NCBI GenBank assembly: GCA_040285855.1
Contig: JAUFOQ010000002.1
Location: 2,976,001-3,040,000 of the forward strand
Source: Eukaryota sp. GEM-RC1
Taxonomy: Eukaryota
Length of the DNA stretch: 64,000 nt
Direction of reading: 5' to 3'
This document shows positions 47-63,612 of this stretch, in pieces (the first letter of the stretch is position 1; each line of letters opens with the position of its first letter). A program made the position numbers and the translations under genes. The notes under the pieces are model-generated. The model ran no database searches and was not told the origin of the DNA. It saw nothing but the letters and a program-made list of their open reading frames with translations.

Positions 47-2042
47 TTACATATTATGATCATGGTAATAAGCAGCACTAATGTAGGTACCATTAATACG
101 TAATCCTCGTTCATTAATCCTTTCATAAGCATCTTTGAGCTTTCTGTCATTATTAGAAAACCAAACGGATGCACTTTTAAAGAAATTGACATCCCGCTCA
201 AATAATCTTGTTCGCCGTCCTTTATCGAGTGTGCCTTTAATTAGCTTCACAAACTGAGGAAACTCAGATAGAGACAATGATTGTGGTAAAAACCTGATAT
301 AAAGACAGTTGCAGTTACTTCGGGTAGGTAGAGAATCATCTGAAGGTCCATCCGCATCAGCAAAACGACATGAGATTACTTGATGAGAATCCGGCCATGA
401 AATATTGCTTCTATTGATCTCATCAACAGCTTTTCGAGCAAAAGCATTAGTGGAGAACTCGACAAAACCTGTTGAAGAAACATCGTTCTGGAAGACATTA
501 AAAGGCTTTTTTAGAACAATGGGGTTTAATAGGCCCAAATTTAGAGGCAAATAAAGCCAATTGGTGAGGGTCAATACCTGCAGGAATATCAGAAAACATC
601 ACATTTGTTAATGATCGGCGAGCAGCTGGAATTCCAGATGGAACTGTAACAGGGGACTTTATAGGTGGACGAGACGGAGGAAAAGTGGAGGTTGGAGTTG
701 AAATACCAGGGGGAGGTGTGATAGATTCTTGTTCATTGTGTACATTAAAACATGAAGTTGAGTTCACTTGCGAGCCTTTAGGGACGTAACTAGCGTCAGG
801 ATAGATATATAGAGAGGGAATGCTGTGGCTTCCAGTTGTTCCGATATCAAAGCAATCCTTGATGAAGAAAGCCACATTGATTATAAAGTCTGGAACATAT
901 TTGGAGAAGAATTCAAAGGGGGTTTGTCTCTGGAGAAGAGGTGTAAGTTGTGCATGAGAAGAGAAGTTCCTAATAGTGGTGAGCAGGCCGAAAATAGAGG
1001 TGACTGTATCATTATATTGTGTGGAGCCTATAGTTTTTTCAATTTCTGAAGCATATCGTTCAGGAATCTTTTTTAACCAATTGTCAGGAATATTGGTTCT
1101 GTAACAGTTTAACGCAGATATAAGAGGAAATTTGGTCTTAATCAAATCATGCATATGGCGGAGAATATCACCAACATAACAATGGTCAGCGTTTAAAGCA
1201 GTAGATGTTAGTTGGTTGTACTTACAAGCACTTAAGGTAAGAGGATGTCTTTGGAGATCTGATATATAAGGACGGTTGATGACGTGCTTCTGCAAGCATC
1301 CTTTGATAAAATTGGCTTCAACAGGAGTCAACTTGGTTAGATCAAGGGAAGGCTCGCTTGATATATGATAAATAGCTCGTTGTTGCTCCTTAGGGGTGTT
1401 TCCAAAGGGGTGGGTACCGGTAAGAATTTGATGAACGATGATTCCCAAAGAGAAAACGTCTGCCCGTTTACAGAGTCTGGATCCAGATTCAAAAACAGAC
1501 ACATCGGATTCGGGAACTTGATAGCCCAGAGTTCCAGCAGCATTATCAGTTTGAATGTGGGTCCGATCTGCGGGGATATAGTGACTAACTCCAAAGTCAG
1601 CAATTTTAATGGTAACAGATTGGTCCGCAGCAACATTTACCATGATATTAGCGGGTTTCAAATCAGCATGAATGACGTCTTTTGAATGGATATGAGCAAG
1701 GCCATCAATAAGTTGATGAATAACGGAGAGCTTAACACCACGATCAAATGTATATGTTCCTTTTGATACCGCTTCAAAGTACTGTGAAAGGTTCATATCA
1801 CACTTTTCTAGAACTAGGTACACAAAATTGAGATCAGATTCGTCGATATCCAGCATTTTGATGATATTGGGATGAGAATTATCCCCATAAGAACATCGGT
1901 GAAGAGAGGCGAACTCAGGAGACTCTAATTTGGCGTACTCTTTGAGAATGACATCGGTGAAGACTCCAGCTTGCTTGAACTTGCCTTCATACACATTGTT
2001 TTGTGAGCGTGAGATTAGTAGTCCTCTTTCGATCTTAGTCAT
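47..2042 (-). CDS. IRE1/RNase L-like kinase + KEN ribonuclease + RRM-like domains, paralog 1 (ORFs 498..2042 and 47..574 joined by a frameshift)
   Basis: Kinase motifs HPNII, LVLEKC, HADLKPANI, DFG, GTLGYQVPE, DVFSLG..GTHPFG. KEN-like WLKKI...SIFGLLTTIRNFSSH...FFSKYVP. RNP-like VMFSDIP, TGFVEF, LYIRFLP. Removing one G from the run near 522-525 gives PIKPIVLKKPF, matching paralog 2. Confidence 0.8.
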
Positions 2043-2890
2043 GGGAGAAGAATTATTTCAAATTTAAAATCCCCAACAACTCTTCACACAACTTGTATTA
2101 GACTTTCACCCCCAACCAGACCCTCTGATTAATTCTCAGACCGATCAACTCTTCTGATGTTTGTTTCTGTCTTTCTCTACATATAATCCTTTTCTCTATC
2201 ATTTAGGTAATCTCCCTTTCGAACAATATCATCTATTTCTCCGTAATTCTGTTTTGGAGACCTCGCTGTACTTCGATGTTCGTCTATCAGTTGTTCTCTC
2301 TATTCTCTCCACGTAACAGTTCATTTCCGTCCCTTCAGAAGTACTGCTTTGAATCATTCTCTGAGTCTCTGGACAGTTGCTGTCAGTCAATCTTGAATGG
2401 TTTTGATTGACATTTATCTATAGATGTGGTATCTCACTTCTAGAACTTTGGGATCCCGTTGCAGAAACAATGATCTTGTGCTTCCACTGCTTGCTATAGG
2501 ACCATAGTATGTCGTAATGATTAACAAATCTTGTTACCAACCGAAATGCAGGTCAACTACTGGTAATTACTCTGGATGTTTTGAAGATATTTATTGAAAG
2601 TCTATTTTCTGACCTTTTTTCATAAAAAATGTTCCTTTGACAGTTTCAATTTTTAATCCAACAATGTTTATATTGGTTCTTTATGGATTATTCGTTATGT
2701 TTGCCTTTAAGAAGCATTCCTAAGTATATGTACCTGTGTGGGGTTTTTTTTGTTATAAATCCTAATATATTATCTTTAAAGGCTGTGCTAGTGGCAGTCC
2801 TATTTTAGCGTTTAACGATGAGCAAGAAAATTTCAAATAATTACGAAGTAATGCAGTAATTGACGAAAGAAATTGGAACTGGATGTGATA

Positions 2891-4275: not shown

Positions 4276-6348
4276 TTATAACTGGGAGTCATAAAAATAT
4301 GAAGCACTTACATAGGTCCCTTTGTAAGTTAAACCATCAACATTAATTCTCTCGTAAGCTTCGCGGAGCTTTCTTTCATTACCACCAAACCATACACTAC
4401 CAGTCTTATAAAAACTATTTACTGCAGTACCTCTGTCAAATAATCTTGTTGGTTGTCCCCTCTCAAAAGTCCCTTTAATCCGTTTAACAAAGTCACGGAA
4501 ATCAGATAATGAGATTGAATAAGGCAAAAACTTGATGTACAGAGAATTGCAGTTACTTTTACAAGGCAAAGAATCATAAAAATTATCATCGGAATCAGCA
4601 ATGCGACATGATATTACTTGATTGGATTCTGGCCAGGAAATATTGTTTTGATTGACCTGATCAACCGCTTTTCGAGCAAAAGCATGAGAAGCATATTGGA
4701 CAAAACCAGTTGACGAGCCATCAGTCTCCGGACGTACACTAAAGGGCTTTTTAACACGAAACGGTTTGATAGGACCAAATTTAGATGCAAATAAGGCAAA
4801 TTCATGACAGTCAATTCCATTAGGAAGATTGGAGAACTCAACCTTAGTTTTTGAGGGTTTTCCTAGTCTCTGTTTTGCAACAACACTAATGAAGGGCTGT
4901 ACTGGTGGTCTTCGGATGGTAGGGGTAGGTGTAGTAATACGAGGAGGAGGCGTGGTAGTGGGAGGTGTAGTAATACGAGGAGGAGGCGTGGTAGTGGGAG
5001 GTGTAGTAATACGAGGAGGAGGCGTGGCAGTGGGAGGTTGATGGGTTACACTGGATCTTGGAGTTGAGTTCACTTGCGAGGCTTTAGGGACGTAACTAGC
5101 GTCAGGATAGATATATAGAGAGGGAATGCCATGGCTTCCGGTTGTTCCGATATCAAAGCAATCCTTGATGAAGAAAGCCACATTGATTATAAAGTCTGGA
5201 ACATATTTGGAGAAGAATTCAAAGGGGGTTTGTCTCTGGAGAAGAGGTGTAAGTTGTGCATGGGAAGAGAAGTTCCTGATAGTGGTTAGCAGGCCAAATA
5301 TAGAGGTGACTGTGTAATTATAGTTTCGAGGGCTTATGGTTCTTTCAATTTCTAAAGCGTATCGTTCAGGAATCTTTTTTAACCAATTGTCAGGAATATT
5401 GGTTTTGTAACAGTTTAACGCAGATATGAGAGGAATTTTGGTCTTGATCAGATCATGCATATGCCGGAGAATGTCGCCAATGGAGCAATGGTCAGCGTTT
5501 AAAGCAGTAGATGTTAGTTGGTTGTACTTACAAGCACTTAAGGTAAGAGGATGTCTTTGGAGATCTGATATAAAAGGACGGTTGATGACGTGCTTCTGCA
5601 GACATCCTTTGATAAAATTGGCTTCAACAGGAGTCAACTTGGTTAGATCAAGGGAAGGCTCGCTTGATATATGATAAATAGCTCGTTGTTGCTCCTTAGG
5701 GGTGTTTCCAAAGGGATGGGTACCGGTAAGAATTTGATGAACGAGGATTCCCAAAGAGAAAACGTCTGCCCGTTTGCAGAGTCTGGATCCAGATTCAAAA
5801 ACAGACACATTGGATTCGGGAACTTGATAGCCCCAAGTTCCAGCAGCATTATCTGTTTTAATGTGAGTCCGATCAGCGGGGATATAGTGACTAACTCCAA
5901 AGTCAGCAATTTTAATGGTAACTGATTGGTCCGCAGCAACATTTACCATGATATTAGTGGGTTTCAAATCAGCATGAATGACGTCTTTGGAATGGATATG
6001 AGCAAGGCCATCAATAAGTTGATGAATAAGGGAGAGCTTAACAGCACGATCAAATGTATATGTTCCATTTGATACTGCTTCAAAGTACTGTGACAGGTTC
6101 ATGTCACACTTTTCTAGAACTAGGTACACAAAATTGACATCAGATTCGTCGATATCCAGCATTTTGATGATGTTGGGATGAGAATTATCCCCATAGGAAC
6201 ATCGGTGAAGAGAGGCGAACTCAGGAGACTCTAATTTGGCGTACTCTTTGAGAATGACATCGGTGAAGACTCCAGCTTGCTTGAACTTGCCTTCGTAGAC
6301 GTTGTTTTGTGATCGAGCAAGAAGCAATCCCCTTTCAATCTTTGACAT
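4276..6348 (-). CDS. IRE1/RNase L-like kinase + KEN ribonuclease + Pro/Thr linker + two RRM-like domains, paralog 2 (intact, 690 aa)
   Basis: Same kinase and KEN motifs (IRNFSSH). RNP-like VEFSNLP, TGFVQY, LYIKFLP. No signal peptide, TM helix or ankyrin repeats before the kinase. Confidence 0.85.
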   Translation of the reverse strand: MSKIERGLLLARSQNNVYEGKFKQAGVFTDVILKEYAKLESPEFASLHRCSYGDNSHPNIIKMLDIDESDVNFVYLVLEKCDMNLSQYFEAVSNGTYTFDRAVKLSLIHQLIDGLAHIHSKDVIHADLKPTNIMVNVAADQSVTIKIADFGVSHYIPADRTHIKTDNAAGTWGYQVPESNVSVFESGSRLCKRADVFSLGILVHQILTGTHPFGNTPKEQQRAIYHISSEPSLDLTKLTPVEANFIKGCLQKHVINRPFISDLQRHPLTLSACKYNQLTSTALNADHCSIGDILRHMHDLIKTKIPLISALNCYKTNIPDNWLKKIPERYALEIERTISPRNYNYTVTSIFGLLTTIRNFSSHAQLTPLLQRQTPFEFFSKYVPDFIINVAFFIKDCFDIGTTGSHGIPSLYIYPDASYVPKASQVNSTPRSSVTHQPPTATPPPRITTPPTTTPPPRITTPPTTTPPPRITTPTPTIRRPPVQPFISVVAKQRLGKPSKTKVEFSNLPNGIDCHEFALFASKFGPIKPFRVKKPFSVRPETDGSSTGFVQYASHAFARKAVDQVNQNNISWPESNQVISCRIADSDDNFYDSLPCKSNCNSLYIKFLPYSISLSDFRDFVKRIKGTFERGQPTRLFDRGTAVNSFYKTGSVWFGGNERKLREAYERINVDGLTYKGTYVSASYFYDSQL
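4928..5035 (-). repeat. 36-bp coding tandem repeat (ITTPPTTTPPPR), about 3 copies
   Basis: ggtgtagtaatacgaggaggaggcgtgg.agtggga is repeated. Paralog 1 has only one related unit. Confidence 0.9.
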
Positions 6349-7160
6349 TGGAGAAGAACTATTTCAAAATTAGATCTTCAGTTGATCAATTGTTATTAGT
6401 GTTATTATGTATATGTGCAAGTCTCAGAATAAGAGATTTAACTTATCAATTTGGCATAACCGTTTGATTTTTTCTTTGTTCCGTTCGGTGCCTAAGTTTT
6501 TAAATCAAATAAAAACTGTGGTACTGTTGACCAGGAATTTTCGGTGTCTAGTGTTTCATAGCTTTTACAATGATATGTATTTTTGTACCCTCCATCAATA
6601 AACTGTTTTTTTTATGTTTGTTTTTGCAATTTCAATTCATAGATGTACTAGTACCTTATTAAGTACCGAATTAAGTCTGATTGTTTGCAAATCGCAATTT
6701 ATGAATGATTATCTTCTTAAGAACTGTTGTCGTAATGTCAGTACCAATTTTGATATTCTACAAGAGAAGTTTTGTAAGCATAACTATGAAAGAGACACAA
6801 CCGCTGGCATTGCAACGCACAAGACTACAAAATTGAGGAATATCATCATTTAAAATCATGTTCCGCTGGAGAAGTTTCAGGTTCACAGTTAAGAACTACC
6901 AAACACATTCAGCGAAGACCAGTTAATTGTGCTGTAAAACAGTATCACTTTCAGTAATAGATTCAAGGACAACAAATGTGTTCTTGATTCTACTACTGAA
7001 AGTGTATTGAAAAATCCAAGTAAAGGACTGCACTATAAGTATCACACGGTTTGCATTGGTTTATTGTCTTGTTTGACAACTGAGAAAATGTCAGTGTCAT
7101 TCAAATATATTATTTATCGATTATCTGAACTACTTGAAGTATTCCCGAAGCAGTTCAAAC

Positions 7161-21179: not shown

Positions 21180-21395
21180 TGTCTAGTGTACCATTCAAAT
21201 ACTTTGGGAAACTTCTATACAAATGCGAGTGCGCCAAAGAGTGTGATTAAAATTTTCCCTATGATCACGGCACAATTTTGAAAAGACATCGAAGAAGTTT
21301 TCGGCAGCACTTCCAATATTACCAAGAATTGATATAGCAAAAGGAAGGAAGGCAAGCTGGACTTTGAGGATATTGATTATTAGATGTATATACAC
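21180..21395 (-). pseudogene. Fragment of the C-terminus of an RLE-type (CRE-like) non-LTR retrotransposon
   Basis: FLPFAISILGNIGSAAENFF..LC..W.TRI aligns by eye with 39978-40520. Confidence 0.6.
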
Positions 21396-34650: not shown

Positions 34651-34859
34651 TGGACTTATAATTTGCTTTCACAAATTCATATTTTCGTGTCCATTTTGGA
34701 CCGATTACCGTTAATTCAAAACTGGTACTAGTATTATTATTTTTTGTTTTGATGACATTGAGTATTAGATCATTTTTTTTATATTTTCGAATAAATGTAC
34801 GAATATTAAAATAAATTATTAGTACTGTAATTTATGAAATATCATATTCCATATTTGTG

Positions 34860-34992
34860 TTCCAACCATTTGCTGCTTTTCTGTTTGGATCGGGTGAACA
34901 ATTTTTCAAGGATTTTGTAGAACTTTGTGAAGAAGAAAAGCACAAGTTTAGAACGTCTGAATGGAAAAACCGTATTGTGTTTTCCATTACTC
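34860..34992 (+). pseudogene. RLE-type non-LTR C-terminal fragment
   Basis: Translates QPFAAFLFGSGEQFFKDFVELC..WKNRIVFSI, similar to the other copies. Confidence 0.55.
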
Positions 34993-35107
34993 GCAAAATC
35001 GAATAGTTGAGACACTGTACATGTACAAGTTTGGTATAGAAGTTAATGTTGAAAAACGTAATCTATTAACGGATAGGGATGAAATCGTTTGGATCTAGTC
35101 TTAGTTG

Positions 35108-35753: not shown

Positions 35754-36725
35754 CTTAGTGGTACTTGTATGTGTTTCTTTCGACAAATTCATATTTACGT
35801 AGGTATGTCAAACTTCGGTCAAAAATTTCTCACATCTTTTGGCAAATTGTGTAACCAATATGGCAAGAATTTTAAAGAAAGTTACTGGAGAGGAAAGTTG
35901 TCATTTTCCCTTTTCAATGAATTGTTTCTGTTTTTGATTCGATTTTGAACCGTCGCTTAAAATTCGGACATGAATTTGCGATGATGTAAAGTGTTGGTAT
36001 CTCACTTGTTAATATTGACGATAGTCTTTATTTGTGACATTATATAAGATGCGTTATTTATTATGCCATACAATGAAAGACAATCGTATTATGTCGTCGT
36101 GAATTTGTAGCATCACTGGGTGTACAGTACGTACTTTTAAATAATAGCGATATTTAGTGTTTTGTTTTCCAAATAGCTCAGCAGAAATCAGTCGAATTCA
36201 CTAATCTTCAAAGCATTTCAAATATTGAACTATTTAACACTGATACGTTCAGTCATTTTCTGTTTCTCAATTATAAACTGGGTCAAAATAGTAGAGTCTA
36301 ATAAAAGACTTTGAATTGGAATAATTTTGGATTGTAATACTGAAGATAAAATAAGATGAAACTTAAGGAAATTGTCATACAGTTTACATTAAACTACCAC
36401 CACCCTGGATTTACGGTGTGCAGCAAAAGCGGCACCAATTCCAGGGCGAACTATAAACTTCTACCACCAAAAGTTTAAACAACAAATGTGTTGGTCGATT
36501 GGAACAGCTCTACGAAATGCAGAACAAATTTCACGCATGGTGTTTGTCTGAGATGTTTAGAGTGGGATTATGCGTCTTAAGTGATGTTTTTCAGCCAAGA
36601 GCAATGCAAGAGCAACATGGACATGACACGTCATTCATTGTTGTTCACTTTTCCATTTTGACAACGCATCACTGGTCACCATGTGGTCTTCTACTGCAAA
36701 CTGTCTTCCCAACTAATCTTTTCAA

Positions 36726-38698: not shown

Positions 38699-39139
38699 AT
38701 GTTTTCTAATTTAGTCCCTTTTGTTTTGTTTATTAAAAAATTATTATTTGAATAAGTCTCAATACAACTTGTAGTCTATTGCTTGTTTGAAACATGAATC
38801 AAAAAAGGCTTTATTTAATACTGAAAAAAGCCACAAGTGTAACATGTCTGCAAAAATATGCACTTGTAAAAAAATACATAATTCAAATTTAAACGACTTC
38901 ATCCAGGGCTCCTCATAAATAAATATTAATTCTATTTATTTCTATTTCTATTTATTTTTGATCCTTTTTGGCGATCATGCAAATACAGTCTACCCTCCCA
39001 ATATGACCAGGTGTCGGACCAGACTTATTGGGAGGGTGGACTTATTCGGAGGGTTTGGTTTTTATAGAATGAACAGCGATCGTCGATCGTTTATAACAAA
39101 TAAAACAACAAGCTAAGACAACCGTGCGTCAATCAATCA

Positions 39140-39590
39140 GGAGACCGATGGCTCGTCAACTGGTTTTGTCCAATATGTTTCTCATGCTTTTGCTCGAAAA
39201 GCGGTTGATCAGGTCCATCAAAACAATATTTCCTGGCCAGAATCCAATCAAGTAATATCATGTCGCATTGCTGATTCCGATGATAATTTTTATGATTATT
39301 TGCCTTGTAAAAGTAACTGCAATTCTCTGTACATCAAGTTTTTGCCTTATTCAATCTCATTATCTGATTTCCGTGACTTTGTTAAACGGATTAAAGGGAC
39401 TTTTGAACGAGGTCAACCAAGATTATTTGACAGAGGTACTGCAGTAAATAGTTTTTATAAGACTGGTAGTGTATGGTTTGGTGGTAATGAAAGAAAGCTC
39501 CGCGAAGCTTACGAGAGAATTAATGTTGATGGTTTAACTTACAAAGGGACCTATGTAAGTGCTTCATATTTTTATGACTCCCAGTTATAA
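39140..39590 (+). pseudogene. 5'-truncated copy of the RRM-coding end of the kinase-KEN-RRM gene
   Basis: Near-identical reverse complement of 4276-4730, with one codon deleted (QPTR to QPR). The 3' flank is also copied. Confidence 0.92.
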
Positions 39591-39977: not shown

Positions 39978-40522
39978 TTAAAACAAATTATCAAACGAAC
40001 TACCTAATTCCGAAAAGTAGTTGCCTCCAAACAACTTGGACAAAATGGAATCAACATATCTATACATAGACCTAAAAATCGAAAAAGCAAATTTACTCTT
40101 CCAGTACGATCTGTTAAACTTCTTGCCAAGTTCTGAACACAAATTTTCAAATAAACTTAAAAACTCCTTGGTAGAAGAACCGAAATTTCCGTACAATGAA
40201 ACTGCAAAAGGCTGAAAGACGATATTATTGTGTCTTCGTGAATTCAATGCAGCAACTTGATGTCCATACTTAGACACTTTGGCGTTCTCAGCGTCTTTCA
40301 GCGGATCATTTGAGGGATTCAAAATGTTGGCAATAGCTGAAGCTTTGCAAGGATCAACGGTCGTAAAATCAACAACAATTTCTTGGCATGACAACCAAGG
40401 GCCAATAAAATCACCACGTTTCTGAGTAGAATCAGGGTGATCTGAAAGATGAGAAAGTAATGGTTCGACTTTGCCATGGAAACCATTTGCCTTAAACATT
40501 TCCAAACATGTATCTCGAAGAC
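39978..40522 (-). mobile_element. 5'-truncated RLE-type (CRE-like) non-LTR retrotransposon, endonuclease domain
   Basis: LRD...VEPLL...RGD...VVDFT...AENAKVSKY...FQPFAVSLYGNFG fits a PD-(D/E)xK-type RLE C-terminus. Confidence 0.75.
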
Positions 40523-40550
40523 TTTTTTTTTGTATCTCGAAGATTTTGTA

Positions 40551-41422
40551 TAGAGATGGGAGCCGGCTCAATTTAGCCGGCTGAGCCGGCTAGCCGAGCC
40601 AGCCGACTGGTCCAGAATAGAAAAATTTTCAGCTGCAAGCCGGCTGGCTAAATATATTTTTAGCCGGCTCAAGCCGAATACTTTAGGTTCTCAGAAAACA
40701 TAGCTAATAAAGAACGAATGATGAATTTAGAAATCGAAAATATCATTTACAGCGCTTTACAGAACAGTTTAGGGCTACTAATGTTTATCAACGTTCGAGC
40801 AACAGTAGAATTGGTGAATATAGTTGATATGTGTCAAATAATTGCCCTACTGTTTTTCTTGGGCACTGATAGTACATTCAGTGCCTTATGTACATTGTCG
40901 CAGTGTCTATTTCTGACACTTTAAATGTCTATTACATCTTTTGCTTCTAAATAAACCGCTATACTTGTGTTCCGAGACAGTAAAAAACCTAGAGTCCGTC
41001 AGAGCTCTTCCTCCAACGACTTTGTTTCTTTAGGACTAATTAAGCTCTTTCTCAAAAGTACTATCGTACTGTTGTCATATTTTAGGCAGACAGCCAATTC
41101 CATAGTGGTGTTTCGATTGTTTCACAGATTCAAGCGATAACTAACCGTCAAGTATATAAGTGATAATCACAAAAATATGTGACATGTAAAATCTGTGAAA
41201 ACTGGAATGTACTGATCAATGGTATCAGCATTGTGTCGTTTTGATACTCGGTGTAGTTGTCATTAACAATGGTTCTGAATCATTTTATTGATATATCAAC
41301 CAACATGCGGCTGAGCCGGCTTTAGCCGGCTTGAGCTGGCTAAAATGCGTTGTAAGCCGCAGCCGGCTGGCTAATGCCTGCGGCTTAGCCGTGAGCAAAT
41401 TTTGAGCCGGCTCCCATCTATA
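40551..41422. mobile_element. hAT-type MITE, family C
   Basis: TIRs tagagatgggagccggctcaa / ttgagccggctcccatctata. Perfect TSD attttgta (40543-40550, 41423-41430). agccggct subterminal repeats. Confidence 0.92.
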
Positions 41423-57089: not shown

Positions 57090-57860
57090 AACAACTAAAA
57101 TTTGATATCATTAAAACAACACCCGTCGCTATCAAATCTTACATAAAAGGAACTCACTGCTAATAAAGCTTTGGAGATGATTAGGGGAATTGTTAAAAAA
57201 CAGTAAAAACTTCAACCATGACGTATGATCAAAACGTTTGTTCATTCTATTTTATACGATTTTTCCGAAATCGTTTAAAAAATTCTATGCACTTTTTCCT
57301 AAACGTCCGTAAATTGAAACAGCTAAAGGACATAATTCGTATTCAACATGTTTTAAAGACAACAACATCTGCTCTCCGTTTACCAAAACATTGGTTCTGT
57401 TTTTCGACATTACAATTATTATTTGGTTCTAAAAGACCTTAGAAGTGGTTCAATAAATGACTCATTTTTGTAAGACTTACACATAGCCTGTATTTAATCT
57501 CTTACAGCATCATGCATACACGTTCGATAAGTTATATAGCGATTACAACTTAACAAATGAGAAAACATTAATTGTTTTCCACAGCTACATTGAAGATCAT
57601 TTGCCAAATTATATGGCCATATATAACAATGAAGTCTGATTGTAGTGGTCCATTGATGATCATTTCATAACAAACCAAATACGTGTGGAATTTGATTAAT
57701 TAATGCCACATCAGAACTCTCCTTTAAATCAATTAAAGAATTAGCGAAAGCTTGATTTTTTTCCTTAGCCTTTTCAATAAGTGTAATAAATTTCATTGTA
57801 TAAAATCGATGAGCACGAAATATTTCAGATAATTTAACATAAATTGACCTAAGCAATTCG
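57090..57860 (-). pseudogene. Decayed RLE-type non-LTR retrotransposon, 3' part
   Basis: AFANSLIDLKESSDVALINQIPHVFGLL. DNA similarity to 58570-59870. Confidence 0.65.
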
Positions 57861-58569
57861 AATACTGACTTTGTGTGTCAAGGCGTGGCATCACGTACAT
57901 GTACTTCAGATTGCTTCTTAATAATTCGTGGAAGACACAGTAGTATTGTCTTTCAACCTGAATATCTGTATATCGAGTCGAACAGTGTGTAATTTGGTCT
58001 GCGAATCAACTGGAAATACTACACTGTCATTGACAATTAGTCTCATTAGGCAAATAGTCTCACTCATAAATTAGTCTTGGTGAAACTATTTTTCCTTAGC
58101 TGGTGTTTGTGGATCGAAACTTTTGATAAAGTTAATTCCTCTTTTGCAGTTTTAAGGGAAGATTGAAAGAGATTAATGGACTAAAACACACTAAAAACTA
58201 TTCTGTGCTGTTGGTGATGTAAAAATTCAGGCAAAAGTACATGATGGAAATTGCTAAGGAAGTTGTTGATAATGATAATAATTCACGTCAAGATGCTTCT
58301 GGTGTCACTTTTGTCCAAAAACCAAAATCATGATGCGTTGCGAATGAAATTTTCATGAAGTGGGACTACAACCAATTTCACAGTTATAGCTACAACTGCA
58401 AGAAATTAAAGGAAAGTATCACTCAAACTTTGACGGTCAAACACCCTCCGAATACATCGTTTACCTGCAGTATTGAGGAGGGACATTGGAAGTTGTTGCT
58501 GACTAATCCAATGCTGATTTTTTTAAAACAGAACATTTTTATAAAACAAAAACACTAAAATAAACACAA

Positions 58570-59870
58570 ATACTAGAACTCAATATCATTAAAGCAACAA
58601 TCATTGCCATTAAAACTCACATCAGCTTTTTCTTCATAAAAAACACTGAGAGCTAATAGAGCTTTTGAAATCATGACAGGAATTGTTTTAAATATTGTAA
58701 AAACAATACGATTCAACCAAAATTTGAAATCAAATTTCTTGTTCATTCTTTTTTGACCACTTTCTCAAAATCAGAGAGAAAACAAAGAGCATCTCTTCCA
58801 AGTCGATCATAAATTGAAATTGCAAAAGGACATAAATTTGTACTCAACATGTCTAATATGTTTGAGAGCAGTCAGTGGTTCATCATATTTGTTTCTCTTG
58901 TATTGTTCTGAAGAATTCAGTGGAGAAACTTCATTTTTAGCATCCTTGAATACACTTTTTTTTGCAAACATCCACAGTAATCACATCAACAACGGTTAGT
59001 TCATCATTGACTGATGGAACTATAACATCAGCTCTTCTTTACCAAAAGTCTTGTCAGAATCACTAGTTTTTAAATTATTGATTTCCGGTGATCTCAACAG
59101 TGGCTCAACAAAAGATTCGATTTTGTAGGACTTACACATGGCATGAATTTGATCTCTGACAGCATCATGAATACAGGTTCTATAAGTATTGAAACGAGTA
59201 CAACTCAAAAGGTGAGAAAAAGTACACTGGTCACAATATTTAGTCTCAGTGGAAAATTAGTCTCACTGAGACTAATTTATGTTTTGCGTCCTTTTGACAT
59301 TTTAGAGGCAAATTTCGCTAGATGAAAATTAGTCTCAGTGAGACTAATTTATGAAGAGACCATTTTGAAACTAGGTTATGAATTAGTCTCACTGAGACTA
59401 ATTGTTGTGACCAGTGTATCTAATTTACCACATTTACATCGAAGATCATTGGTAAATTAGAGGGCTACAAGAAACATCGAAGTCTGAATATTGTAGTCCA
59501 TTGATGATCATTCAACAACAAACCATAAATCTGAGGAATTTGGTTAATCAAAGCAACTGAAGAACTGTCCTTCAAATCAATTAAAAAATTTGCGAACGCT
59601 GGATTGTTTTCTTTGGCCGAGCCAAGTCGAATTTTAAAATCCATACATTCAAAATGTTTTAAAAGGTGTTTTTGGAGTTTCTTAAGAGCAAATTTTAACG
59701 AGGTGACACATCGGTCTGGTATTTCACAAATATCTGCTAGAAAACAAGTTTGCCAGAGGTCAGGTGAAATTAGCGACAATTCAGATCTAATGATGATGGT
59801 ATTATAAATATAGAATAGTTTTTCTTTTACTTGTTTATCATAAAACTTTGTCAATAAAATTTGAAATCGA
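58570..59870 (-). pseudogene. RLE-type non-LTR retrotransposon 3' part (CCHC finger + RLE), interrupted by a MITE
   Basis: FRLR...RCKCGKLD|TFSHLLSC...HDAVRDQI...VEPLL. Confidence 0.75.
59225..59416. mobile_element. TA-flanked MITE related to 58022-60036
   Basis: TIRs cactggtcacaa / ttgtgaccagtg with TA TSD. Removing it restores the host reading frame. Confidence 0.9.
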
Positions 59871-60466
59871 CCAAGACTAAATTAAATCATCAAGAATTAG
59901 TCTTGGTGAGACTAATTAAAATACAGTTCAATTAGTCTCACTCATATATTAGTCTTGGTGAGACTAATTGTTATGTGTGCACGATTGAAAGTGTCTTAAG
60001 AATTAGTCTCACCAAGACTAATTGTCAATGACAGTGTAGAAGAGCAAATAGAACAAACAGTCCTATGCAAAAGGATCACTTCCTATAAAGCCAAAAGGAA
60101 CGATCAAATATTCTCACAATTCTACTTAACATAGGTAGACTAATCGTCAGGAACAGCAAGAACTGTTTTACCTTGTGAATCAGTTAGTAAAAATTGCAAC
60201 AAGACATGAAAAATAGTTACATGTATAACATGTACCACATACACATCATATACCATATACTGTTAGTTACAATTAGTACGACATCAACTGTTATCGTATC
60301 AGTGACATACTCTCAAACTTGTCAAGATGTCAACATGTCAATGTAGACATTAACCACAAATAGTTCAAACAGAAATTTAAGATCATTCGCTTAGTGAGAT
60401 GTCTATCGACTTCGTGTTGGTTAGATATCTCACTGTGCTTCGTCTCCCCACTGTCAGGAGCCTTCC

Positions 60467-60775
60467 ATGGGTCTTTTGATCCTCAGATCACTCCTTTGCT
60501 TGGTTTGTTGCTTTATTTTCACTCAAGACCGTCAGGTCTTTATGAAGATTTTCATGGGTCCCTCGATCCTCAAATCTCTTCTATTTCTTTTTTGTTTTTG
60601 TCTTTTCACTCAAGACCGTCAGGTCTTTATGAAGATTTTCATGGGTCCCTCGATCCTCAAATCTCTTCTATTTCTTTTTTGTTTTTGTCTTTTCACTCAA
60701 GACCGTCAGGTCTTTAAGAAGATTTTCTTGGGTCCGTCGATCCTCAAATCTCTTCTGTTTTTGTTTTCTTTTTGT
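60467..60775 (+). repeat. 87-bp tandem repeat, about 3.5 copies (29-aa hydrophobic unit)
   Basis: Units start at 60467, 60554, 60641 and 60728. Unit translation MGPSILKSLLFLFCFCLFTQDRQVFMKIF. Confidence 0.95.
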
Positions 60776-61630
60776 TATAGTACTCCATATTGTTGTGATT
60801 CTTGTTGTGCTTGTTGTATTACAAAATCCAAAATAAATCTCCAGTCATCACAATTTCTCCGTGATTTGACTATCGACGGGGACATTGAGTCTAATCCTGG
60901 ACCCGATCTAATTGAAAATCATTCCAATATTGATTCTTTGCTACCTCAAAGTTGGTTATGGACCACTATTGTAGACTTTTATGGACAGTACATCACTGAA
61001 CATAGTGTTAAATGTTCATATCTCTCGTGTGAAGCATTGTCACTTGCAATTACAGAGGACAATTTGGCTGAAGAGGAAAGAGATCGTTGGCATCTTCACA
61101 AACTATTTCAAGAAACCTTAGATTTGATGAATTCTTCCAGACCACCAACCAAACAATATTTGTTTATTCCAATAAACGATGGTATCTTTAATAATGAAGC
61201 TACTCACTGGACTCTGTTGATTTGTGATATTAAGAGAAAAAGATACTATTCCCTTGATCCAATGTTTACTCAAAATCAACATCAGAAGTTTTCAGATACT
61301 TTAGGTCGTTGCGAAGATGTTATTAGACAATTTCATGAGCGTGTGTTTTTTCCTTTCAATTATCATTATTTAGGAAGGCTTTTCGTAACTCAACACCAAA
61401 CACAAGGTGACTGTGGACCTTTTATTTTAGAGTACATGAGTAAATTTGTTGAATTTGAACAAACGTCACTAGATATCAACGTAATTTTAAGTCAAGTTCG
61501 ATTGTTCAATGAATATGATGCTCTAGAAATGAGGAAAAAAACTCTTTCTAAACTCTTTGGGGACTGGCTAAGCACTGTTTTGGATATAAGAATAATGATA
61601 AGAAGATTGGTCCTTTACATTCAAAAGTGA
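60467..61630 (+). CDS. Repeat leader + 2A + Ulp1/SENP (peptidase C48) domain
   Basis: SLLPQSWLWTTIVDFY, LFIPIN...THWTLLICD, YSLDP, QTQGDCGPF. Catalytic His, Asp, Cys and oxyanion Gln are present. Confidence 0.85.
   Translation: MGLLILRSLLCLVCCFIFTQDRQVFMKIFMGPSILKSLLFLFCFCLFTQDRQVFMKIFMGPSILKSLLFLFCFCLFTQDRQVFKKIFLGPSILKSLLFLFSFCYSTPYCCDSCCACCITKSKINLQSSQFLRDLTIDGDIESNPGPDLIENHSNIDSLLPQSWLWTTIVDFYGQYITEHSVKCSYLSCEALSLAITEDNLAEEERDRWHLHKLFQETLDLMNSSRPPTKQYLFIPINDGIFNNEATHWTLLICDIKRKRYYSLDPMFTQNQHQKFSDTLGRCEDVIRQFHERVFFPFNYHYLGRLFVTQHQTQGDCGPFILEYMSKFVEFEQTSLDINVILSQVRLFNEYDALEMRKKTLSKLFGDWLSTVLDIRIMIRRLVLYIQK
60854..60904 (+). other. 2A / StopGo ribosome-skipping motif
   Basis: FLRDLTIDGDIESNPG|P is an exact match to D(V/I)ExNPGP. 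Confidence 0.88.
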
Positions 61631-62770
61631 CTAATTACATGTCTGCTAATCAGATCACCAACATGACCCATTCTCAACAACAAGATTACTGGAAAAGATG
61701 GTTTAACTGTGATGACAGAAGTTTTCAAAAAGCCAATTTTGAATTCAACAACTATGCTGTAACTGATGGAATATCGATTTGTTTTCAATTTGTGAGAAAG
61801 GATCTGAAAGGAATGAAATGTAAACCTGATTCAAGTAAAGCTTCAGTAAAGGTACAATATTTCAATGAATGTGAAAGGTCTGATTTTGTTTCTAAACAGA
61901 TGGTTTATGTGGACATTGGAAAGAGAGATATGCTACAACTTGCATCTAAATCAGATAGGGAAACTCAAAATACTCTAAAGAAATACAATTTCTTACGATT
62001 GACATATGCTGAGTGGTCTAGAGTTTCAAGAAAGCATAAAAGAATCCACCAGTACCTTGTCAGAAAGAGATCTGGTACTAGTCCCTCAGGTCAGACAAAG
62101 ACTATTGAAGAATGGAACACTTGGTTAGGTGAAGAACAGGATTCTAAGACAGTCAACTACAACAAATTTAGAGAATTTATGCTGAATAAATGTATTCACT
62201 ACAATGCAACTAAAGACTTCTATGATTTGCATATATGGAGGATTCACAAAATCCAAAATCATGTCCATAAGCAAAAGACAGAGTCTAAATTGGTTAACAG
62301 CATTGTAAAAACTTTCGGTAGTCGTGGTAAAATCGTACTATGTATTGGTGATTTAGGTCAGAAGCCAATGGCGAACTTAAAACACAGTCCACCATCGAGA
62401 ACTAAGACTTGGACTTTATTCTTCCAGAGAAATGGTTTTCTAACAGTGATGAATGATGAGAGAAACACTTCGTCCAAGTGTCCAGAATGTCATGAAGATG
62501 TTTTTGAAACTTCTATTGAGGTTGTCAACCCAAAGCCCAAATCAAGAGAGAAGAGAGAATGGATTCATCCACATGGCTTACTAGAGTGTAAGAGCAAACA
62601 TTGTCTGGGAGAAGTCAAGAAGCGATTGAAGGGGGGAAAAGAAAGGGCATACAGTGCCCAGTCAAATGTATTGGAATCGCAACAAGATGGCTTGCTTGAA
62701 CATGATGAACATGTTCGAGCATTGGATGAATGGTAGTGATAAGAGAGTTGAATATTTATGTAGAAATTAG
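61552..62770 (+). CDS. Fanzor1 (eukaryotic TnpB-family RNA-guided protein), N-terminally short; frameshift in the G-run at 62631-62636
   Basis: VTDGISIC. RuvC-I YVDIG.RD (61912). CIGD. RuvC-II DERNTSSK (62458). Zn finger CPEC...CKSKHC. In the shifted frame YWNRNKMACLNM...EYLCRN* (stop at 62770). Confidence 0.85.
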
Positions 62771-62880
62771 CTTTATTTTTGTTAGCTGGCCGGTGAAACC
62801 CCGCCATATTTGGTTAAGTCCACATACAATGTATATAATTATGTTAACATCAGCCTTCGGGAGAGGAAAACCACAGTAGA
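62771..62880 (+). ncRNA. Candidate Fanzor omegaRNA scaffold (ends unknown)
   Basis: Immediately 3' of the Fanzor stop. Hairpins tggc-c-ggt(gaa)acc-cc-gcca, gtta/acata...tatgt/taac and cc(ttcg)gg. Confidence 0.5.
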
Positions 62881-63185
62881 ATTGACCAGATCAACACCAA
62901 ATGCATTCTGATCAACCTTCACCATTCACTCAACATTTACTGTGTCTGAACCACGGATTCAGTACTATATGAGTGAAGCAAATCTCAATAGGCATCATGG
63001 AACTATGCATGAACAGTGATGAACCGACGACATTGAAATGCCTCTTTTGGGGAGAGGAACATTTTACAAATTTCAAATAATGTCCATAAGATATTCGAAT
63101 TATTAATGTCTTCGACTCCAGTCTAAAGAGCACACACAGTTTATTTGCAGCAACATTGATGTTTAAAAACACCATAACAGGTAAT

Positions 63186-63612
63186 CTATTCAGCTTGCCC
63201 TGAAGAGCTAAACTTGGTTACAGCCTTTGTACCTTCAGAAACAGCATGTTTTGATAACTCGCCAGGCAACAACAGTCTAACAGCAGTTTGAATCTCTCTT
63301 GATGACAATGTATTCCTCTTGTTGATTCTGGCCAACCGAGAAGCTTCAGTAGCAATACGTTCAAAAATGTCATTGACAAAAGAGTTCATGATTCCCATAG
63401 CCTTGGTAGAAATACCAGTATCAGGGTGAACCTGACGGAGAACACGATATATATAAGTAGCCCAAGTTTCCTTACGGGCTTTTTTTTCTCTTTGTAGTAA
63501 CGGGAGCTCCTTCAGCAACAGCCTTTGTAGGTACTTTTGAAGGAGCTTTAGCTGCTACTCCTTTAATGGACTTGGTAGACTTTGTAGACTTGACAGATTT
63601 CTTACCCGGCAT
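63186..63612 (-). CDS. H2B: Histone H2B (frameshift near 63481-63490)
   Basis: MPGKKSVK tail. [16 protein letters not shown]...[30 protein letters not shown]. Confidence 0.97.

Follow-up and report, generated by a model that had tools for sequence, protein, structure and literature searches.

A 64,000-nucleotide stretch of DNA from Eukaryota sp. GEM-RC1 (assembly GCA_040285855.1, contig JAUFOQ010000002.1, positions 2,976,001 to 3,040,000 of the forward strand), referred to here as the window, carries at 60467–62880 a C48 protease sequence followed directly by the rear half of a Fanzor1 nuclease. This locus is probably no longer functional and derives by internal deletion from a multicopy protist element. 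Compared with its fuller relatives, the window copy has lost the linker, the exonuclease, WED-I and REC. Judged from their predicted proteins, the fuller relatives likely encode a leader, a 2A-like motif, one or more C48 proteases, a basic linker, a 3'-5' exonuclease of the family B type and a full-length Fanzor1. The family is a Fanzor1 variant in which an exonuclease-Fanzor is part of a 2A/C48 polyprotein, and it is found in gene models of three organisms. The window is eukaryotic by its content, which includes histones H2A and H2B, Hsp70 and a short GT-AG intron.

The features of the locus are given below, with P numbers denoting gene models of relatives and omegaRNA the guide RNA of such nucleases.

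60389–60438 (+): long hairpin that may form the left end of the element (-27.7 kcal/mol, z -5.8, 0 of 200 shuffles)
60463–60775 (+): three head-to-tail 87-base repeats coding for a hydrophobic, Cys-rich leader, with its ATG at 60467 (repeat family D1, 83–88% identity)
60881–60904 (+): 2A-like core DIESNPGP, read from the sequence; skip predicted before Pro 60902
60905–61537 (+): C48 (Ulp1/SENP8-type) protease domain, His-Asp-Cys intact (PF02902, E 1.4e-10; 94–96% identity to P0014, P0017, P0018 and P0019)
61538–61558 (+): junction, with AAACTCTTT present twice, 11 bases apart; similarity to the protease gives way here to similarity to Fanzor (from the codon view and the parental proteins)
61552–62636 (+): rear half of Fanzor1, with the end of WED, RuvC-I Asp 61912, rearranged RuvC-II Glu 62458 and the C4 zinc finger
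62630–62770 (+): C-terminal end of Fanzor, shifted into the next frame past a G6 run, with Asn (62681) as the RuvC-III residue and the stop at 62768–62770
62693–62721 (+): hairpin inside the end of the open reading frame (ORF), which may be the start of an overlapping omegaRNA (z -3.2, 2 of 200 shuffles, picked after a sliding scan)
62771–62980 (+): region where the omegaRNA and right end are expected, with a hairpin at about 62925–62980 (62900–62990 z -3.1, picked after a scan)

The ORF that runs from the ATG at 60467 to 61630 encodes the leader, the 2A-like core and the C48 protease, and the latter two are present as the original prediction had described them. The Peptidase_C48 match in Pfam is above the cut-off and spans 60953–61456. 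It includes the catalytic His (61205), Asp (61256) and Cys (61412) and retains the Gln and Trp context of the triad (THW, LDP and QxxxDCG). The 2A-like core fits the 2A StopGo consensus D(V/I)ExNPGP, which is given in a published abstract; skipping itself is a prediction. The 87-base leader repeats are present in fewer units in P0015, P0016 and P0020. P0016 aligns with the window from 60399 on, and therefore the family sequence extends into the hairpin at 60389–60438.

The Fanzor rear half is 86–93% identical to P0001, P0002, P0007 and P0008. Its frame starts at 61552 after a TAA, without a start codon and one base off the protease frame, as originally reported. A second frame break is located at the G6 run (62631–62636), and the 46 codons beyond it are identical to P0007 residues 679–724 at 41 of the 46 positions. 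The C-terminal motif of Fanzor1 is given in passages of PMC3627910 as D-X(125,275)-[TS][TS]xx-C4 finger-X(5,50)-RD. The window fits this motif with Asp 61912, 184 residues and TSSK-CPEC...C...C; the last element is RN and is split by the frame break. In the rearranged RuvC-II of Fanzor1 there is a Gly at the canonical site and a Glu just before the zinc finger (PMC10530073), which is also the arrangement in the window (IGDLG and DERNTS) and in the relatives.

The protease had been described as ending at MRKKTLSKLF, with an extra G in the GGGG at 61559–61562 as the point at which the two frames fuse. The similarity within the protease family stops earlier, after MRK, and all five of the copies that reach the junction continue as R/M-ILNLIIDTH (two further models end before it). 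The Fanzor copies read IDTRTLWG at the junction in four out of four cases, with hundreds of residues upstream. From this comparison of predicted proteins, TLW and the GGGG (TGG GGA) are therefore native Fanzor Trp-Gly sequence rather than an error site, and the join is placed at 61552 or earlier. The GGGG was thus correctly located but is not the point of fusion. At the junction the parental peptides are alike, with RIL on the protease side and RTL on the Fanzor side. The 11-base duplication would be the scar of a deletion sealed with templated duplication by what is here labelled microhomology-type end joining.

The family profile aligns TLW of the window with SpuFz1 I281–Y283 (numbering without the tag length), so that the copy begins at about I281. 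WED-I and the whole of REC are absent, including the equivalents of SpuFz1 H21, T22, K25, R96, Q129, Q130, N133, Q148, R157, R260 and R268. Passages of PMC10432273 describe these residues as binding the target-adjacent motif (TAM) and the heteroduplex. Since WED-I and all of REC are gone, the window copy is predicted to be unable to read a TAM even if it were in frame. The frame of this copy hardly matters, because these residues are absent, and it is most likely a dead fragment.

Single-base sequence errors may be present at the frame breaks of the window, because homopolymer breaks also affect host genes there. The earlier observation of one-base homopolymer breaks held for H2B, a TmcB-like gene (three times) and an RCC1-like gene, but one frame shift examined among the host genes is a GT-AG intron. 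The break in the histone H2B gene (63186–63609, -) is of one base in an A run near 63480–63490 and is probably an assembly error. Between the protease and the Fanzor, a one-base change in the runs of 3–4 bases at 61550–61562 would open the frame; the longest run nearby, A7 at 61535–61541, does not open it. An intron joining the frames was rejected, six GT-AG introns of 77–110 bases being possible on paper but without support. P0002 and P0008 have an identical frame shift just after RuvC-I, which was either inherited as a mutation or produced by a systematic error of sequencing.

Other copies are known from predicted proteins only, and all of the relatives are automated gene models. The close relatives are labelled Eukaryota sp. 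GEM-RC1, TZLM3-RCL and TZLM1-RC in the source records; passages of PMC11316075 describe such organisms as free-living metamonads whose gene models were made automatically from long-read assemblies. The fusion of the exonuclease to Fanzor is very probably real. In P0010 (1192 residues), 2A, C48, Exo II–III and the whole Fanzor are found in one model, where Exo I, II and III are the motif names of proofreading-type exonucleases. All three Exo motifs and all three RuvC motifs are present in P0027, P0185, P0186 and P0179, Exo II–III and the whole Fanzor in P0188, and the whole exonuclease with the front half of Fanzor in P0182 and P0184. The motifs take the form of DxE (Exo I), NxxxFD (Exo II) and YxxxD (Exo III), each found in P0027, P0179, P0182, P0184, P0185 and P0186. 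Matches to PF03104 in the relatives range from E 8e-7 to 5e-14; the exonuclease is absent from the window copy. Within the Fanzor family to which the window copy belongs, the model P0008 begins part-way through the exonuclease (E 1e-34); its identity to P0179 is 46% across 631 columns.

In an alignment of seven long models, drawn from all three subclades described below, the Exo III helix lies at a constant distance ahead of the sequence aligned with SpuFz1 residue 23. Matches to the family profile are SpuFz1, PpFz1 and GtFz1, then the Pol delta exonuclease (E 2e-11). The AlphaFold2 model of P0186 is confident at 381–1096 and suggests that the fuller relatives have WED and an enlarged REC. With Foldseek, this model matches SpuFz1 and PpFz1 at E about 1e-27 (SpuFz1 E 5e-27, template modelling score 0.82 of the target). 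The identification of the exonuclease, as one of the family B DEDDy type, is based on PF03104, the Pol delta match and the motifs, that is, on sequence.

The domains of P0022 are ordered 2A-C48-C48-linker-Exo I-II, and NPGP occurs only once. Over about 300 residues, the linker plus exonuclease of this model is 34–36% identical to P0186 and P0027. P0182 contains the tail of a C48, a 2A, the linker, the exonuclease and the front half of Fanzor. It groups with P0179, which among the long relatives is closest to the window Fanzor (52% in the rear half). A 2A is therefore positioned between the protease and the exonuclease-Fanzor in the clade A model P0182, while another subfamily (P0022, P0010) has none between the protease and the exonuclease. 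The 2A motif also occurs in P0004, P0010, P0022, P0179 and P0182. The original view that 2A, C48 and Fanzor travel together is borne out by related models that place all three in one ORF. Tandem C48 domains (two, or one plus a part) are found in P0004, P0005, P0006 and P0022, so the number of proteases varies among subfamilies of the element. In P0185 a DEAH helicase precedes the element sequence, as does a DM10 domain in P0030; both models are probably insertions into host genes or false joins.

A search with the window Fanzor found 749 representatives at E ≤0.001, and the figures that follow rest on 150 of the 749. None of the 137 distant Fanzors among these 150 listed matches is matched by an exonuclease profile made with six models of the lineage (best E 0.31). 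Likewise, the 55 distant Fanzors among 66 Pfam-scanned proteins have no C48 or exonuclease family. A quick tree of the last 400 residues combined 12 rows of the lineage with 60 of the 137 distant ones; the 12 form one clade against the 60 others (Shimodaira-Hasegawa-like approximate likelihood ratio test 99). In this tree the exonuclease lineage has three deep subclades. Because all three have exonuclease-bearing members, the fusion looks ancestral to the clade. The RuvC-III residue is Asn in 23 of the 24 lineage models that reach it; for the same 137 distant Fanzors it is Asp in 81 and Asn in 5, with no match in 51. Asn at this position was considered as a mark of a dead, TldR-like nuclease and rejected, since GtFz1 is active with Asn (passages of PMC11423790). 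Leads in the Atlas were all below 0.9 and all ordinary Fanzor clusters of 618–707 residues.

Several observations weigh against the reading of the locus as a deleted copy of such an element. Six of the 13 matches to the exonuclease profile are its own training sequences, and the exonuclease part of the P0186 model has a predicted local distance difference test score (pLDDT) below 50; the P0184 fold, from 16 sequences, has a mean pLDDT of 32. Gene models may join neighbours, as with the helicase of P0185 and the DM10 domain of P0030, and P0010 does not have Exo I and so may itself be deleted or mis-spliced. No model joins a P0014-type protease to a P0007-type Fanzor intact, and the five longer models of the P0014 type all come to an end some 80 residues past the protease. 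When this stop was tested for a common frameshift into a linker like that of P0022, 9–10 identities out of 15 were obtained, against shuffled maxima of 9–10, with positive controls recovered at 16 out of 16 and 24 out of 26. No transposase, terminal inverted repeat (TIR), target site duplication (TSD) or omegaRNA was established at the locus. For the specificity of the protease, the best solved match of its profile is SENP8 (E 5e-6), level with Ulp1 (E 2.2e-5), and SENP8 is a NEDD8 protease. An engineered fusion with a 5' exonuclease (T5E) lowered editing by SpuFz1 (passages of PMC13434818).

The stop shared by all five longer P0014-type models, none of which has an exonuclease, would also be seen if the junction were a chimera of two subfamilies or of neighbouring insertions, with a protease-only 5' part and a separate exonuclease-Fanzor 3' part. 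These models and the Fanzor models found do not have neighbouring locus numbers, and 5'/3' chimeras of Fanzor1 elements are described in passages of PMC3627910. However, the first module of P0022, a model that continues to the exonuclease, is matched by the protease of the P0014 type together with its tail (36–38%, tail E 2e-5), and the two halves at the junction are co-oriented and in the domain order of the family. A chimera is regarded as unlikely. The original prediction had itself offered a deletion junction as its alternative, between the 5' end of a Ulp1-encoding element, for example a NeSL-like one, and the 3' half of a Fanzor. The deletion is retained here; a NeSL-like element joined to an unrelated Fanzor is not, because no protease copy among the gene models compared runs on into a reverse transcriptase, and three longer homologs and P0022 show a further C48, a linker or an exonuclease instead. 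An assembly artefact, through a long-read misjoin of two repeat copies, would be in keeping with the many one-base homopolymer breaks in the window and with both halves being multicopy. Against this, the parental peptides are alike at the junction (RIL and RTL), and the 11-base templated duplication there resembles the scar of a repair more than an error of the consensus; a misjoin is very unlikely.

The proposal that the protease replaces WED/REC in an RNA-guided deSUMOylase requires the locus to be in frame in the cell as a protease-Fanzor fusion. In its favour, neither the protease nor the RuvC motifs are disrupted, the window has frequent breaks at homopolymers, a one-base change at 61550–61562 opens the frame, and another subfamily (P0022, P0010) has no 2A between protease and exonuclease. 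Yet both halves have fuller forms elsewhere, the upstream half of Fanzor being present in four out of four copies, and the junction is found in no other gene model. The copy starts near SpuFz1 I281 and does not have the TAM and heteroduplex residues, the A7 run leaves the frame closed, both of the frame breaks would have to be errors, and the protease profile matches SENP8 as well as Ulp1. Such a fusion at this locus is extremely unlikely, and an internally deleted copy of the larger element is the preferred explanation. An RNA-tethered protease is possible in the subfamily of the P0022/P0010 type, where it would be added to a full Fanzor and would not replace WED/REC.

In the full element, 2A skipping would free the leader and, in the clade A model P0182, the protease, while the basic linker could provide nuclear import. 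An omegaRNA at the right end would guide the exonuclease-Fanzor ribonucleoprotein to a TAM-flanked empty site, which Fanzor would cut with its D-E-N RuvC triad. The tethered exonuclease may then nibble the cut 3' ends so that simple religation does not occur, and repair from an element-bearing copy would amount to restorative homing. The protease may strip SUMO or NEDD8 from silencing or repair factors. A role for the exonuclease in trimming ends is put forward tentatively, with trimming of the guide as the main alternative. Cutting of the empty site followed by repair from the element-bearing copy is a role reviewed for obligate mobile element-guided activity (OMEGA) systems in passages of PMC13565253, and a SUMO-related role has been proposed for transposon Ulp1 domains in passages of PMC2836005. 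It is conceivable, though doubtful, that the full element is a new OMEGA mobile element without its own transposase. This would combine a 2A-processed polyprotein, the Fanzor cut, end-shaping by the exonuclease and, in at least one subfamily, attached protease(s) that strip SUMO or NEDD8 at the cut, with spread by break-induced copying.

Fanzors studied so far are stand-alone nucleases. In this clade, an intact exonuclease is kept across subfamilies that are only about 30–37% alike, which suggests that end processing is part of the job. If true, the family would be the natural counterpart of the nuclease-exonuclease design that failed as T5E-SpuFz1 (passages of PMC13434818). No natural fusion of Fanzor with an exonuclease or a protease was found when published titles and abstracts were searched, but supplements, Fanzor locus tables, Repbase or subscription papers could hold one. 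The word 'exonuclease' is absent from the main text of PMC10530073, PMC10711439, PMC10432273, PMC10691335 and PMC13565253, and the 2A surveys PMC12338488 and PMC13405545 do not mention Fanzor, Ulp1 or C48. Passages of PMC6338049 contributed nothing further.

Among known systems, the relatives match Fanzor1 (SpuFz1 8gkh, PpFz1 9cf0, GtFz1 9cer) over the whole length in sequence and in predicted fold. They share the rearranged RuvC-II Glu next to the C4 finger, and the RuvC-III Asn with GtFz1. The solved Fanzor1 proteins are stand-alone, whereas the relatives add a 3'-5' exonuclease directly before WED-I, within a protease/2A polyprotein; the window copy has neither WED-I nor REC. The Exo I DxE, Exo II NxxxFD and Exo III YxxxD of the relatives are those of the Pol delta proofreading domain (3iay). 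Unlike family B polymerases, the relatives have no polymerase domain and have Fanzor in its place. The DNA transposons that carry Fanzor1 (Helitron2 CRe-1/2/3, Sola2, MuDR-like and MCi-2, in passages of PMC3627910) are likewise multicopy, often truncated or internally deleted, and have Fanzor at the 3' end. The same passages describe truncated, deleted and chimeric Fanzor1 elements and the ends of Helitron2, and name no protease or exonuclease fused to Fanzor. Helitron2 has a strong 5' hairpin like that at 60389–60438 (z -5.8), for which a terminal position is putative here. In contrast to these transposons, no transposase, asymmetric TIR, TIR or TSD was found at the locus, and there is no RepHel domain in the Pfam-scanned models. 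The Ulp1-bearing transposons Ginger1 and Mutator also have C48 inside the transposon ORF (passages of PMC2836005). Their C48 follows a DDE transposase, while here it precedes the exonuclease-Fanzor, is accompanied by 2A-like motifs and matches SENP8 equally with Ulp1. An N-terminal 2A-like motif in a mobile-element ORF is likewise described for non-LTR retrotransposons (PMC3708506).

An omegaRNA had been placed at 62775–62880, but the fold of this segment is not more stable than that of shuffled sequences (z +0.74), and Rfam gave no match for it. The best inverted match between the ends is of 10 bases (60117–60126 with 62875–62884) and was equalled by 91 of 300 shuffles; the best direct match was equalled by 233 of 300. 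DNA of the relatives was sought in viral and metagenome contigs and none was found.

Upstream, at 58019–60040, there is an element bounded by perfect 25-base terminal inverted repeats that start with (TA)CACTG; internally it contains many AATTAGTCTC repeats. It ends about 350 bases before the hairpin at 60389. A small element with related ends is nested inside it at 59223–59418, and a degenerate copy of its end is present at 60257 (6 mismatches out of 23). Elsewhere in the window, the ORF at 39978–40589 (-) has a KRGD...VVDFT motif and no Pfam match; we take this motif to recall the restriction-like endonucleases of non-LTR elements. Decayed copies of this ORF are at 58681–58923, 57216–57404, 21198–21356, 34857–35000 and 35811–35936. 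A further multicopy gene, at 47–2057 (-), 4276–6363 (-) and 39117–39590 (+), has a kinase, a weak RNase 2-5A/KEN-like domain (E 0.003, below the cut-off) and an RRM. This resembles the layout of IRE1/RNase L with the addition of an RNA-binding domain.

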